The position numbers were made by a program. Shown piece after piece: positions 21,001 to 27,000 of a stretch of DNA of 27,123 bases (the first letter of the stretch is position 1; each line of letters begins with the position of its first letter). This DNA is from a virus (lineage: Duplodnaviria; Heunggongvirae; Uroviricota; Caudoviricetes): positions 1-27,123 of IMG/VR virus record IMGVR_UViG_2563366879_000003, one strand, 5' to 3'.

Positions 21001-24000
21001 TAACTCCCAACCACAAAGAATTGATCGAATTATTCGATGCTCTTCCATCTTCCGAGCAGGAAGCCTTGCTGTCTGAAATGCGCGCAAGAGTAGAAAACTT
21101 CAACAAACTCTTCGAAGAAATGCTTAAAGCGCGTAAAAATAAATCAATAAAATAACATTCTTTTCAAGTGATTAGTTGCGCCCACTCTTTTTGTTAGACC
21201 AATCTAACAAAAAACACTTGCCTCTCATGTTAGGTTATTCTAAATTACTTTCCATCAAGACACCGCACGGTGTTCTCAGCAAACAGTTCCGCTACCCCGG
21301 CGTTAAGGGGAAATGAGGTCAGCATGGATACTATCGATCTTGGCAACAGCGAATCTCTGGTATGTGGCGTGTTCCCCAACCAGGACGGCACGTTCACCGC
21401 GATGACGTATACCAAAAGCAAAACGTTTAAAACCGAAAATGGTGCCCGTCGCTGGCTGGAAAGAAACTCAGGTGAGTGATATGGATTTCGACACAATCAT
21501 GGAAAAGGCTTACGAAGAATACTTCGAAGGCCTTGCCGAAGGCGAAGAAGCTCTCAGCTTCAGTGAGTTTAAACAGGCACTCAGAATAAGAATGTGCTCT
21601 CACAATGACGCAGAGCACAAATATGAGAAGCAAAATCAGACCGCAGAAAATTTTGTTCTGGAACCCGGAGAAACGCTTTTCAAAATTCCCGTTACGTGCC
21701 CCATTTGCGGTTTTACATCAGAAGAACTTGACGACTCCTGTAACAATCAGGAAACAACCAAGTATGTCGAAGATGATACCGAGTGCGCACGAAGAACGAT
21801 TATATCCACGAGTCCAAACTCCAGGACCAATAAATCTCACTTTGAGAGGGTGATTAATCCACTCCCCCAAACCAATAAAAAAGATGCCGGAGGACAAAAA
21901 ACCCAATGGAACAACGGGATATCTGTCAAAAAAAGACGTTCCATTAAAGACAAACAACGCAGCGCCAACAACTGTAAGCGCTTTATACCAGTAATCAATT
22001 TTCATGTTCTTAAGCGGATTTATTGGTGGTTGCGACATTGCTTAATGAATCCTTAAAACTGTGGTGATTTTAAGGATACCACCTCGCCTGACGTGGTTAA
22101 AAGCAGGCACACAACACGAAAGCGCACGGCGAAGTTCGTCTCACTGTACGGTGTCGTTAAATTTAATTCGACCGTGCGCTTCCGGTTGTGGCAACCCGCG
22201 AAATGGCGCGGCGGTAAGTATGGCGGGGTTATTCCTTCCCCGTAGAGGACACCGAGTTGTCAGGTTGACCATACGCTTAAGTGACAACCCCGCTGCAACG
22301 CCCTCTGTTATCAATTTTCTGGTGACGTTTGGCGGTATCAGTTTTACTCCGTGACTGCTCTGCCGCCGTTTTTAAAGTGAGTTTTGTGATGCGGTGAATG
22401 CGGCTAAGCGCACGCGGAACAGTTAAAACCAAAAACAGTGTTATGGGGGGATTCTCTGTATCCGGCGTTAATTGTTAACTGGTTAACGTCACCTGGAGGC
22501 ACCAGGCACTGCATCACAAAATTCATTGTTGAGGACGCGATAATGAAAACGTTATTACCAAACGTTAATACGTCTGAAGGTTGTTTTGAAATTGGTGTCA
22601 CTATCAGTAACCCTGTATTTACTGAAGATGCCATTAACAAGAGAAAACAAGAACGGGAGCTATTAAATAAAATATGCATTGTTTCAATGCTGGCTCGTTT
22701 ACGTCTGATGCCAAAAGGATGTGCACAATGAATTCAGCATTTGCGCTTGTTCTGACAGTTTTTCTTGTTTCCGGAGAGCCAGTTGATATTGCAGTCAGTG
22801 TTCACAGGACAATGCAGGAGTGTATGACTGCAGCAACCGAACAGAAAATTCCCGGTAACTGTTACCCGGTCGATAAAGTTATTCACCAGGATAATATCGA
22901 AATCCCGGCAGGTCTTTAAAACAGTTCCGTAATAAATATCCGGTTTCATTCTTATATGCCAGCAATGGCAGGGATTTGTTCATCCTTAAATCTGTCATGA
23001 GGTTAAAACAAAATGAGTAAAGTCTTTATTTGCGCCGCTATTCCTGACGAACTGGCAACAAGGGAAGAAGGCGCTGTGGCTGTAGCCACAGCCATTGAAG
23101 CTGGCGACGAACGCCGTGCTCGAGCAAAATTTCACTGGCAGTTCCTGGAACATTATCCGGCTGCTCAGGACTGCGCTTATAAATTTATTGTCTGCGAGGA
23201 TAAACCTGGCATACCCCGCCCTGCCCTCGATTCATGGGATGCTGAATATATGCAGGAAAACCGCTGGGATGAGGAGTCTGCTTCTTTTGTCCCGGTTGAG
23301 ACTGAATCCGATCCGATGAACGTCACTTTTGACAAGCTGGCCCCTGAAGTACAGAACGCTGTCATGGTTAAGTTCGACACATGTGAAAACATCACCGTTG
23401 ATATGGTTATTAGCGCACAGGAATTGTTGCAGGAAGACATGGCAACATTCGACGGACATATCGTTGAAGCGTTGATGAAAATGCCAGAAGTTAACGCCAT
23501 GTATCCGGAGCTTAAGTTGCACGCCATTGGGTGGGTTAAGCATAAATGTATTCCTGGTGCTAAATGGCCCGAAATTCAGGCAGAGATGCGCATCTGGAAA
23601 AAACGTCGCGAAGGTGAACGCAAGGAAACCGGAAAATACACGTCTGTTGTTGATCTCGCCCGCGCCAGAGCCAATCAACAGTACACTGAAAATTCAACAG
23701 GAAAAATCAGCCCGGTCATTGCTGCCATTCATCGCGAATACAAGCAGACATGGAAAACACTGGATGACGAACTGGCCTACGCTCTCTGGCCTGGTGATGT
23801 GGATGCCGGAAACATTGACGGCAGCATCCATCGCTGGGCAAAAAAAGAAGTTATCGACAACGACCGCGAAGACTGGAAGCGTATCTCGGCATCAATGCGC
23901 AAACAGCCTGATGCCCTTCGCTACGACCGCCAGACTATTTTTGGCCTTGTCCGTGAGCGTCCGATCGACATTCACAAAGATCCCATAGCACTGAACAAAT

Positions 24001-27000
24001 ATATCTGCGAATACCTGACGACAAAGGGCGTGTTTGAGAATGAAGAAACAGACCTGGGCACTGTTGATGTTCTCCAGTCATCAGAAACACAAACTGATGC
24101 AGTGGAAACTGAGGTATCTGATATCCCAAAAAATGAAACCGCGCCGGAAGCTGAACCATCTGTAGAGCGTGAGGGGCCGTTCTATTTCCTCTTCGCAGAT
24201 AAGGACGGAGAAAAATACGGTCGCGCAAACAAACTTTCTGGTCTGGATAAGGCACTGGCTGCTGGCGCCACTGAAATCACAAAAGAAGAATATTTTGCCC
24301 GAAAAAATGGCACATACACGGGCTTACCGCAAAATGTAGATACCGCTGAAGATTCAGAACAACCAGAGCCGATAAAAGTTACCGCTGACGAAGTAAACAA
24401 AATTATGCAGGCAGCCAATATCAGCCAGCCTGACGCCGATAAGTTGCTTGCTGCATCACGTGGTGAATTTGTTGAAGGGATTAGTGACCCGAATGATCCG
24501 AAATGGGTTAAGGGGATCCAGACCCGCGATTCTGTGAACCAGAACCAGCATGAATCGGAACGGAACTACCAAAAAGCGGAACAAAACAGCACAAATGCGT
24601 TACAAAACGAGCCAGAAACGAAACAGCCTGAACCAGTGGCGCAACAGGAAATGGAAAAAGTCTGCACCGCCTGCGGTCAGACCGGCGGCGGCAACTGCCC
24701 TGATTGTGGCGCGGTGATGGGCGACGCAACATACCAAGAAACATTCGATGAAGAGTATCAGGTTGAAGTTCAGGAAGATGATCCGGAGGAAATGGAAGGC
24801 GCTGAACATCCACACAAGGAGAACACTGGCGGCAATCAGCATCACAATAGCGATAATGAAACTGGCGAGACGGCAGATCACTCAATTAAGGTGAACGGTC
24901 ATCACGAAATCACATCCACCAGCAGGACGTGTGACCATCTAATGATCGACCTTGAAACCATGGGAAAAAATCCTGATGCCCCGATCATCTCAATAGGTGC
25001 AATATTTTTCGATCCGCAAACCGGAGATATGGGACCGGAATTTAGTAAGACTATCGATCTGGAAACTGCTGGCGGAGTCATTGATCGGGACACCATTAAA
25101 TGGTGGCTTAAGCAATCACGCGAAGCGCAATCTGCCATTATGACCGATGAAATCCCGTTAGATGATGCACTGTTACAATTGCGGGAATTTATCGACGAAA
25201 ACTCCGGTGAATTTTTTGTTCAGGTTTGGGGAAATGGAGCCAACTTCGACAACACGATTTTGCGCCGTTCATACGAACGGCAGGGGATCCCCTGCCCGTG
25301 GCGTTACTACAACGATCGCGATGTACGCACAATCGTTGAGCTGGGGAAAGCCATAGACTTCGATGCCAGAACGGCTATTCCATTCGAAGGTGAGCGCCAT
25401 AATGCACTTGATGACGCCCGTTACCAGGCAAAATACGTTTCAGTTATCTGGCAAAAACTGATCCCGAGTCAGGCTGATTCTTAATGTTCAACTGTCGCCG
25501 GTTGTGACTGGTATTCTGCAACCGGCGCTCGTCTGATGTAAGAGATAAAGAAATCGATGAGCGAAGTAATCATGATTGTCTCTCCCGGCAAATGGGTATC
25601 CGAAGAGCAGTTAATTGCGCTGAAAGGAATAAAAAAAGGTACGTTAAAAAAGGCCCGGGAAAAATCGTTTATGGAAGGAAGGGAATATAAGCATGTCGCT
25701 CATGACGGTATGCCATGGGATAACAGTCCATGCTTTTACAACCTGGAAGAAATTGATCGCTGGATTGAGCGCCAGGCATCAGCGAGACCAAGACGTCATC
25801 TTACTTGACTAAAAGCCACACTAACTAATGAGAGAAGTTGAAATGAAATATCCGACAGGCGTGGAAAACCATGGAGGGAAATTACGTATCTGGTTTGTTT
25901 ATAAAGGCGTAAGAGTCAGGGAAAATCTGGGGGTTCCTGACACAGCAAAAAACAGGCGCGTTGCAGGTGAACTACGCTCCTCTGTTTGTTACGCAATAAA
26001 AACTGGTGTTTTCGACTATGCAAAACAGTTTCCCTCCTCACGCAATCTGGAAAAATTTGGTGAGGCCCGACAAGATTTAACCATAAAAGAACTGGCTGAA
26101 AAATTTCTGGCACTGAAAGAAACTGAAGTCGCCAAAACATCACTCAACACATACCGTGCCGTCATCAAAAATATCCTGAGCATAATCGGTGAAAAAAATC
26201 TTGCCTCATCGATTAATAAAGAAAAATTACTGGAGGTTCGTAAAGAGCTACTGACTGGATACCAGATCCCCAAAAGTAACTATATTGTTACACAACCAGG
26301 GAGATCGGCTGTAACTGTAAATAATTACATGACAAATCTTAACGCCGTGTTCCAGTTTGGTGTTGATAACGGTTACCTGGCAGATAATCCGTTTAAGGGG
26401 ATCTCGCCATTAAAGGAATCAAGAACCATTCCGGATCCTCTTTCGCGGGAGGAATTTATCCGTCTTATCGATGCGTGCAGAAATCAGCAAGCAAAAAATT
26501 TATGGTGTGTTTCTGTTTATACTGGCGTTCGCCCTGGTGAGCTGTGTGCACTTGGATGGGAGGACATAGATCTGAAAAATGGAACAATGATGATCAGGAG
26601 AAATTTAGCAAAAGACCTTTTCACGGTACCAAAAACACAGGCGGGAACCAATCGGGTCATTCATCTTATTAAGCCAGCAATCGACGCTCTCCGGAGTCAG
26701 ATGACATTAACGAGACTGAGCAAAGAGCATATCATTGATGTTCACCTCAGAGAGTATGGCAGAACAGAAAAACAAAAATGCACCTTTGTTTTTCAACCTG
26801 AAGTGTCAGCGAGAGTAAAAAATTATGGTGACCATTTTACCGTTGACTCAATAAGGCAGATGTGGGACGCAGCGATAAAACGTGCCGGACTCCGCCATCG
26901 AAAATCATATCAGTCGAGACATACTTATGCCTGCTGGTCGCTGACAGCTGGTGCTAACCCGGCATTTATAGCAAACCAGATGGGCCATGCAGATGCGCAA

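Follow-up and report, generated by a model that had tools for sequence, protein, structure and literature searches.

The DNA analysed here (the window), comprising the 27,123 nucleotides (nt) at positions 1 to 27,123 of the Caudoviricetes record IMGVR_UViG_2563366879_000003, belongs to a lambdoid prophage of the Qin/mEp460/Tritos type and includes its leftward early operon. Within this operon, a single long open reading frame (ORF) at 23013-25484 on the + strand, with an ATG start, encodes a protein of 823 amino acids (aa), which is a modular member of the RecE family with folded domains joined by long acidic disordered linkers. The usual RecE head, a PD-(D/E)XK 5'-3' nuclease, is replaced in this protein by a DEDDh domain predicted to act as a 3'-5' exonuclease, and the gene lacks an annealing partner. 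Among related loci the partner follows the head, with recT accompanying the PD-(D/E)XK heads and none accompanying the DEDDh heads, and no exception was observed where downstream sequence is available. The protein can tentatively be regarded as a DNA 3'-end exonuclease forming a one-gene Rec module which relies on host RecBCD and RecA.

Architecture of the RecE-family scaffold

The NCBIfam RecE equivalog model NF007259 matches residues 246-625 of the protein over positions 271-602 of its 877 (E 4e-84), at a score of 283 bits, which is far under the cut-off of 1269 bits, so that the protein is not classed as a RecE equivalog. In a BlastP comparison, residues 262-625 align with positions 278-591 of a Rac-type RecE (locus L005) at 40% identity (E 1e-62); within this alignment, the block 474-622 is 69% identical to RecE 454-588 and holds the motif DADKLLAASRGEFV(E/D)GISDPNDPKWVKGIQTRD, a Cys-x2-Cys-x7-Cys-x2-Cys ribbon and an acidic run. 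Judging from these alignments, the resemblance of the middle region to RecE is real homology, beyond composition. A first-pass annotation, made by a model from the sequence alone, had likened an acidic, Cys-containing middle segment to the RecE linker, and this is borne out. Its broader description of a RecE-like protein holds for residues 246-625, but not for residues 1-245, where PF06630 (Exonuc_VIII) was not matched by Pfam at E <= 1 and BlastP against RecE likewise gave no match. By the same comparisons, residues 1-245 constitute a different N-terminal module, which is not RecE-like. The whole-protein and distant-N-terminus profile searches were dominated by near-identical E. coli clusters and yielded, besides prevalence figures, the newer Pfam identifiers PF27430 and PF27432.

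AlphaFold2 models gave a predicted local distance difference test score (pLDDT) of 82 for residues 1-352, with the model of the whole protein being weak (pLDDT 65; predicted template modelling score 0.30). The models order the protein into an alpha/beta domain (1-95), a helical domain (105-205), a disordered linker, a core (246-340), an acidic disordered linker and a small insert (388-433), followed by approximately 200 very acidic, mostly disordered residues, which include a conserved motif and a zinc ribbon, and finally by the DEDDh domain. The features of the gene are as follows:

23013-25484, + strand: 823-aa gene, RecE-family scaffold with DEDDh head (ORF; end-to-end match to phrog_2082 'exonuclease')
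23013-23297, + strand: domain 1, aa 1-95, small alpha/beta domain of N-terminal module A (AlphaFold2 pLDDT 81-94)
23325-23627, + strand: domain 2, aa 105-205, helical domain of N-terminal module A (AlphaFold2 pLDDT 81-94)
23748-24032, + strand: domain 3, aa 246-340, helical core corresponding to RecE 278-360 (NCBIfam; BlastP; AlphaFold2 pLDDT 80-92)
24174-24311, + strand: small folded insert, aa 388-433, beta-beta-alpha-beta-alpha (AlphaFold2 pLDDT 79-88)
24399-24887, + strand: RecE-like acidic block, aa 463-625, with motif DADKLLAASRGEFVEGISDPNDPKWVKGIQTRD (69% identity to RecE 454-588)
24663-24707, + strand: zinc ribbon C551-x2-C554-x7-C562-x2-C565 (cysteine positions; RecE CNACGQTGGDNCPDCG aligned)
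24936-25451, + strand: predicted DEDDh 3'-5' exonuclease head, aa 642-813, PF16473, DexA/Rv2179c-like (Pfam E 2.3e-67)

Module A, which comprises domains 1 and 2, is common to approximately 20 representative proteins with differing C-terminal heads, and a fold search with its model returned no informative match. Domain 3 is the region that defines the family, with the consensus TLDxEIAxAL...DREDWKRWSxALR in the alignment of 20 representatives. The insert at aa 388-433 (GPFYFLFADKDGEKYGRANKLSGLDKALAAGATEITKEEYFARKNG) matches no family and is carried by only some relatives, being present in P0122 and absent from Rac RecE, P0128 and P0141 in the alignment. The acidic block is mostly disordered, with low pLDDT values except in short helices, and a weak Pfam DZR hint (E 0.18; residues 547-569) coincides with the zinc ribbon.

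Homology to RecE ends at the start of the RecE nuclease domain. No similarity to RecE 596-866, which holds the PD-(D/E)XK nuclease, was found in the protein by BlastP or phmmer, and the PF16473 domain sits there instead, in agreement with the earlier observation that the RecE nuclease is missing. Rac RecE and the 823-aa protein have in common the helical core, the conserved DADKLLAASRGEF...DPNDPKWVKGIQ motif, the zinc ribbon and the acidic linker, as well as a beads-on-a-string design with the nuclease head at the C-terminus, and both are encoded in the same slot, as the last gene of the leftward early operon ahead of xis/int. However, the Rac RecE head is a PD-(D/E)XK (5'-3') nuclease and the head here is of the DEDDh type (predicted 3'-5'), while Rac RecE possesses a PF06630 N-terminus and is followed by recT, neither of which is found here. 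The protein is a member of PF16473 and is not RecE in the family sense, as at least three of the five features taken to define the latter, among them the nuclease domain and the partner gene, are lacking. Its identification as a canonical RecE was rejected on the basis of the equivalog score (283 vs 1269 bits) and the absence of a PD-(D/E)XK domain, PF06630 and recT. The function of the RecE N-terminal domain was given as unknown in a 2023 review, according to which the nuclease domain suffices genetically, while full-length RecE improves linear-linear recombination (PMC11611040).

The DEDDh exonuclease head

Domain searches with the C-terminal region, where DEDDh motifs had been noted at first inspection, returned a full-length match to PF16473 'Rv2179c-like 3'-5' exoribonuclease' (residues 642-813; profile positions 2-177 of 177; 226.5 bits vs a cut-off of 27), together with a second, weak Pfam match to RNase_T. 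The five catalytic residues D646, E648, D746, H796 and D801 are all present, aligned to D7, E9, D119, H186 and D191 of T4 DexA, and are invariant in an alignment of T4 DexA, three stand-alone phage proteins and four fused homologues. A search of PDB sequences at E <= 1 retrieved T4 DexA only (two entries; best 8KEL, E 1.6e-6), with no match to Rv2179c, while the best Foldseek match of the full-length model was E. coli oligoribonuclease, with a probability of 0.95 but a weak E of 0.15. As the closest solved sequence, T4 DexA, is a DNA exonuclease, the term 'exoribonuclease' in PF16473 is a family name only. DexA and the head share the five catalytic residues but are only 26% identical, and DexA is a stand-alone protein of 227 aa with extra loops from a virulent phage, in contrast to the fused head described here. 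Rv2179c, a 3'-5' exoribonuclease of Mycobacterium tuberculosis, belongs to the same Pfam family as the head, but is a bacterial housekeeping-type RNase, whereas the 823-aa protein is phage-encoded.

The DEDDh domain is also widespread among phages as a stand-alone protein, with tblastn identifying it in 750 phage records. The lambdoid phage mEp235 and the P22-like phage g341c encode a 182-aa stand-alone copy with 56-59% identity to the head, in the gene order kil, Rad52/Erf-like annealing protein, single-strand DNA-binding protein (SSB), DEDDh and abc2. The stand-alone DnaQ-like nucleases of epsilon34, mEp235 and g341c resemble the head over the whole domain (56-59% identity) and are likewise encoded by lambdoid early-left genes. 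They differ in being unfused proteins of approximately 182 aa, located between SSB and Abc2 beside a Rad52-like protein, whereas the head is fused and none of those genes is present.

Head type and annealing partner across relatives

The other early-left ORFs encode no annealing-protein domain recognisable with Pfam or PHROG, comprising only DUF1391, DicB, DUF1482 and an unassigned 205-aa ORF. Queries representing four RecT types, Bet, Rad52-like/Erf, Sak4-like, SSB, Gam, Abc2 and lambda Exo proteins gave no match by tblastn or phmmer in the window, the complete HannyBb genome or, with both strands covered, 83 related loci, which upholds the original remark that no RecT/Bet/Erf gene follows. 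The possibility that recT was missed by annotation was rejected, given its absence from the 83 loci and the complete HannyBb genome and given that this absence tracks the type of head.

An exhaustive cluster-representative search with residues 1-640 retrieved only 245 proteins, and the scaffold family is therefore narrow. Its modules combine freely, with either N-terminal module A or a RecE N-terminus (PF06630; present in the relatives P0128, P0203 and P0242) joined to the shared core, the linker block and a variable head. The representatives include DEDDh-head proteins (P0001, P0122, P0128, P0137, P0141 and P0245), proteins with a RecE-type PD-(D/E)XK head (P0143, P0235, P0200, P0131 and others), proteins with no recognisable head, and P0203, which joins a RecT domain straight onto a RecE N-terminus and linker.

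A total of 169 loci, drawn from IMG/VR and GTDB genomes, were classified; the first IMG/VR scan gave 80 near-identical loci and a narrower alignment scan nine. An annealing protein, SSB or anti-RecBCD gene occurs in none of the DEDDh-head loci (0/83), in all of which dicB, ydfD and the exonuclease gene are followed by xis-int wherever the contig goes on. DEDDh-head variants with a RecE N-terminus, found at other attachment sites, likewise lead straight to xis-int. By phmmer, recT is the next gene in 66 Rac-type PD-(D/E)XK loci, and the three Rac-type loci without recT stop at the contig edge. A PF03837 RecT gene (Pfam) also follows L100 and the long DUF3799-like heads of L101 and L094, the Pfam scan of such heads having covered these two loci, not the other seven of the L101 type. 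The distribution analysis proposed with the first-pass annotation thus separates the two types, with recT at the PD-(D/E)XK loci where this can be checked and not at the 83 DEDDh loci. In L133 (2941-6261), the gene after a headless RecE scaffold of 648 aa is of the AAA_24 (Sak4-like) type. Each half of the 823-aa protein is separately tied to phage recombination modules, as the scaffold co-occurs with RecT or Sak4-like proteins and the stand-alone DEDDh protein sits in Rad52-SSB-Abc2 modules.

A further arrangement occurs in Erwinia and Pantoea prophages (L097, 9322-10617, and L098), where N-terminal module A and the shared core are joined to an unassigned C-terminal region of approximately 430 aa. 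In L097 this region gives a sub-threshold Rad52_Rad22 hint (E 0.0085) and a Sipho_Gp157 gene is found next. Proteins of the L097 type could be fusions of the scaffold to an annealing protein.

Prevalence, allelic variation and selection

At a length of at least 80%, the gene is present in 3537/5426 complete E. coli genomes (65%), with up to ten matching places per genome and several copies in enterohaemorrhagic E. coli strains. It is further carried by the deposited complete-genome phage records HannyBb (99.6% nt identity), PhiR42_1 and Tritos (99.1%), which range from 99.1 to 99.6%, and by the similarly deposited mEp460 (92%). The pseudogene ydfE of K-12 MG1655 corresponds to the first 256 codons of the gene, at 100% aa identity, cut by IS2, and its earlier interpretation as a truncated remnant is therefore correct.

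Full-length alleles make up 56/64 of the unique alleles. Comparison with diverged alleles gave ratios of nonsynonymous to synonymous substitution rates (dN/dS) of 0.05-0.25 in the folded parts, including approximately 0.1 in the N-terminal module and 0.2 in the shared core, and 0.05 in the aa 463-505 motif, while linker 346-462 is fast-evolving (68% identity among alleles). The gene is functional and under purifying selection, not a relic, given its presence in complete phage records, the 56/64 full-length alleles and the dN/dS values. A pseudogene was rejected on its intactness in phage records, the low dN/dS of the folded domains and the invariant catalytic residues. Synonymous divergence (dS) among alleles is approximately 0.02 in the 3' half (aa ~463-823) and 0.15-0.56 in the 5' half; the gene is thus an intragenic mosaic, with a 3' half that is near-identical among alleles and a diverged 5' half. 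This pattern suggests that the 3' half recently spread among prophages.

Operon context and neighbouring genes

The gene order in the window is DicA-type repressor, ydfA, 205-aa ORF, DicF, dicB, ydfD, exonuclease, xis and int, with the DUF1391 (YdfA) gene upstream of DicF (Pfam). The assigned neighbours, among them the excisionase and integrase which had been correctly placed next to the exonuclease gene, are the following:

20748-21155, + strand: DicA-type repressor at the head of the leftward early operon (ORF; helix-turn-helix protein/DicA in related records)
22317-22368, + strand: DicF small RNA (sRNA), upstream of the exonuclease gene in the same operon (Rfam RF00039; 72.5 bits; E 2e-14)
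22543-22731, + strand: dicB (Pfam PF05358; E 1e-39)
22728-22919, + strand: ydfD, DUF1482 lysis protein, directly upstream of the exonuclease gene (PF07358; E 4e-26; ydfD in related genomes)
25557-25808, + strand: excisionase (DUF1233), directly downstream, in the slot of recT in Rac (Pfam PF06806; E 1.6e-31)
25828-27123, + strand: tyrosine integrase (ORF; integrase in related records)

The promoter of the corresponding operon in K-12 is repressed by DicA (PMC10448788). A site scan, which is weak evidence, detected neither a promoter-like sequence nor any convincing terminator-like one separating ydfD, the exonuclease gene and xis from each other. An inverted repeat (GCCGGTTG...CAACCGGC; 25496-25530) without a T-run lies between the exonuclease stop codon and xis, and might be an RNA processing or regulatory hairpin. 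The same 6.1 kb occur at 99.8% identity in E. coli chromosomes, adjoining rspB.

The 205-aa ORF (21439-22056, + strand) encodes a CPICG...C motif, belongs to phrog_35040, occupies the place of ydfB/ydfC in K-12 Qin and also occurs in HannyBb; it had no match in Pfam or PADLOC. Elsewhere in the window, a 763-aa AAA_13/SMC-like ATPase (15962-18253, - strand) was matched by PADLOC to PDC-S06, a candidate defence system (E 7e-72). Its gene has hok/sok (sok RNA, 15296-15470) on one side and the DUF977 and O-like replication genes on the other, and looks like defence cargo in the early-right region. An STnc490 sRNA and a cspA thermoregulator leader were detected within 11184-12001 (- strand) in the prophage late region, and an IS009 RNA element at 5733-5931.

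Correspondence with the Tritos-type Rec module

The Rec modules of 325 lambdoid phages were classified by Zheng, Casjens, Davidson, Amundsen and Smith (Genome Res 2025; PMC12315714). Table 1 of that survey defines a Tritos type with a nuclease, no single-strand annealing protein (SAP), SSB or anti-RecBCD protein, and 7-21 top-strand Chi sites. The main text lists DnaQ-like 3'-5' nucleases, such as that of epsilon34, as Rec-module members, reports 'RecE-2' proteins without nuclease, and proposes that phages without their own recombination system depend on Chi and host RecBCD. Tritos itself encodes the same gene (99.1% nt) in an identical gene order, with no sequence difference to set the two apart, and the lambdoid early-left operon in the window likewise holds a nuclease gene and no SAP, SSB or anti-RecBCD gene. 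The 823-aa protein corresponds to the nuclease of this published module.

The protein has thus already been catalogued, in databases and in the 2025 survey. RefSeq names it exonuclease or 3'-5' exonuclease, which is correct, while phage records often mislabel it as 'exodeoxyribonuclease VIII'. The chimeric architecture and the kind of nuclease are not described in the main text of PMC12315714.

HannyBb has five top-strand and two bottom-strand Chi sites, against 0.85 expected per strand, compared with the 7-21 top-strand sites tabulated for the Tritos class. The window, which is part of the prophage only, contains two Chi sites on the + strand and four on the - strand. One Chi complement (CCACCAGC; 24916-24923) falls exactly at the junction of the RecE-like linker and the DEDDh head, at codons 635-637, and is one of the five top-strand sites of HannyBb (strand of the deposited record).

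Proposed role and alternative explanations

In the proposed one-gene module, the usual 5'-3' head of RecE has been swapped for a DexA/Rv2179c-type DEDDh head, which would strip nucleotides from free 3' ends by two-metal catalysis. The exonuclease would be made after induction or infection and not in the quiet lysogen, since its gene is the last before xis-int in the DicA-repressed leftward early operon. As the sole recombination-type gene of these phages, it would form a 'nuclease-only' Rec module that trims DNA, rather than RNA, at the 3' ends and 3' tails of phage replication and recombination intermediates, and may thereby serve recombination-dependent growth. Strand pairing would be left to host RecA, and to RecBCD acting at Chi sites, and the RecE-like scaffold would bring the head to the same site as RecE.

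Several points weigh against this assignment. Substrate and polarity are deduced from family membership only, and the classified loci are mostly near-identical E. coli prophages, with few independent lineages behind the counts. The main difficulty is that, according to the main text of PMC12315714, 3'-5' exonucleases usually lower RecA-dependent recombination by removing invasive 3' tails. DnaQ-type genes beside int are treated there as probably not belonging to Rec modules, and the same main text is silent on whether the Tritos nuclease was typed as DEDDh or, by annotation, as RecE. The exonuclease gene does adjoin xis-int, yet recET holds the same position in the Rac/Qin group. Finally, 65% of E. 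coli genomes retain the gene, frequently within a defective prophage, which a benefit to the host could explain.

Such a benefit is the basis of the chief alternative, which is considered unlikely, namely prophage defence or superinfection exclusion, with the head digesting incoming foreign DNA, such as the 5-hydroxymethylcytosine (5hmC)-modified DNA of T-even phages, in the manner of EcD ('HREX'). EcD, a DEDDh exonuclease of the DexA family from E. coli, digests the DNA of T4 while leaving unmodified DNA intact and confers protection from this phage, and DexA homologues are commonest in Escherichia (Kang et al., NAR 2025, PMC12153337). T4 DexA is the closest solved relative of the head, retention in 3537/5426 genomes at up to ten places each would be explained, the window holds a second candidate defence gene (PDC-S06), and DicB, encoded in the same operon, reportedly shields E. 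coli against infection by phages (PMC6832061). However, EcD is a different, short stand-alone protein with other termini (MIDTET... and ...TIPETYD, as deduced from primers) and its own residue pattern, and its primer sequence is absent from the window and all loci. The 5hmC-recognition residues of DexA are not retained in the head, where W152 aligns with Tyr (Cys in P0128) and D169 with Ala (the alignment at D169 being uncertain); in the alignment the tetramer Asp D90 is retained here but is Ala in EcD, and S87 is replaced by Pro. PADLOC 2023 gave no match for the 823-aa protein, the K-12 copy was destroyed by IS2, and the gene lies in a DicA-repressed early-left phage operon (PMC10448788) with no promoter-like site of its own. 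Defence also offers no account of why the head is joined to a RecE scaffold or why recT goes with one type of head only. A broader alternative, likewise thought unlikely, treats the scaffold as a delivery platform that recognises a DNA structure or host complex and has swappable heads. RecT would accompany a 5'-3' nuclease head, a 3'-5' nuclease head would act by itself, and headless forms would be paired with Sak4. The DEDDh form would then be an effector that does not support recombination and acts instead on another target, for example foreign or modified DNA, the ends of host DNA or a trigger of host immunity, and this would explain its retention in most E. coli strains, even in defective prophages.

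The remaining explanations are less probable still. An anti-defence or take-over role, in which the protein removes 3'-ended immune triggers (single-stranded DNA tails, retron multicopy single-stranded DNA or linear signalling oligonucleotides) or shields phage DNA ends, with the scaffold as decoy or targeting module, is improbable. It would fit the early operon, the long acidic linkers and zinc ribbon, which could be DNA-mimicking or partner-binding segments, and the lack of Gam and Abc2, which makes other means against RecBCD or nucleases plausible; but structure and sequence searches found no match to a known anti-defence protein, and Chi enrichment in the phage class suggests that RecBCD is used, not blocked (PMC12315714). 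Equally improbable is an RNA exonuclease that trims RNA 3' ends, such as those of the long dicBF-xis-int transcript or of host RNAs. The naming of PF16473 after the M. tuberculosis exoribonuclease, the oligoribonuclease match in Foldseek and the presence of DicF in the same operon favour such an activity, but that match is weak and the DEDDh fold is common to DNases and RNases, T4 DexA is the only PDB sequence matched, and the genomic company of both halves consists of DNA recombination genes. Nucleotide scavenging, in which DNA fragments would be digested to mononucleotides for phage replication, is very improbable, even if a part in scavenging host DNA has been described for the homologous T4 DexA (PMC12153337). 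The Pfam and PHROG scans revealed no endonuclease partner among the operon ORFs, and scavenging gives the RecE scaffold no reason. Furthermore, breakdown of the host chromosome is not known from temperate lambdoid phages. That the gene is a decaying remnant with no present function is barely credible. Defective prophages account for many of the copies, and that of K-12 is disrupted, but the deposited complete-genome phage records carry an intact gene, 56/64 unique alleles have the full length, the folded domains show dN/dS well under 1 and the catalytic residues are invariant.

The suggestion in the first-pass annotation of a role beyond classical recombineering can thus be retained in part. 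A role other than classical recombination by an exonuclease and annealase pair is likely, although it most probably still has to do with the ends of phage DNA, because both halves of the protein are tied to recombination modules, DexA is a DNA exonuclease and the Tritos type has been published. The more specific proposal of host DNA or RNA processing or anti-defence found no specific support, given these ties of the two halves to recombination modules. Anti-phage defence by the prophage, which the annotation did not raise, has a precedent in the literature in EcD, a more distant E. coli homologue of DexA (PMC12153337).

Significance

The gene is among the commonest prophage genes of E. coli, occurring in 65% of complete genomes, and its scaffold belongs with the N-terminal two thirds of RecE, which have been without a known function for decades. 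One scaffold that carries nucleases of opposite (predicted) polarity, with RecT present only alongside PD-(D/E)XK heads, represents a natural experiment in which the functions of scaffold, head and partner are separated. For recombineering, a 3'-5' version of full-length RecE could serve as a tool or control. The architecture further bears on recombination-dependent replication in lambdoid phages that possess neither an annealing protein nor a RecBCD inhibitor.

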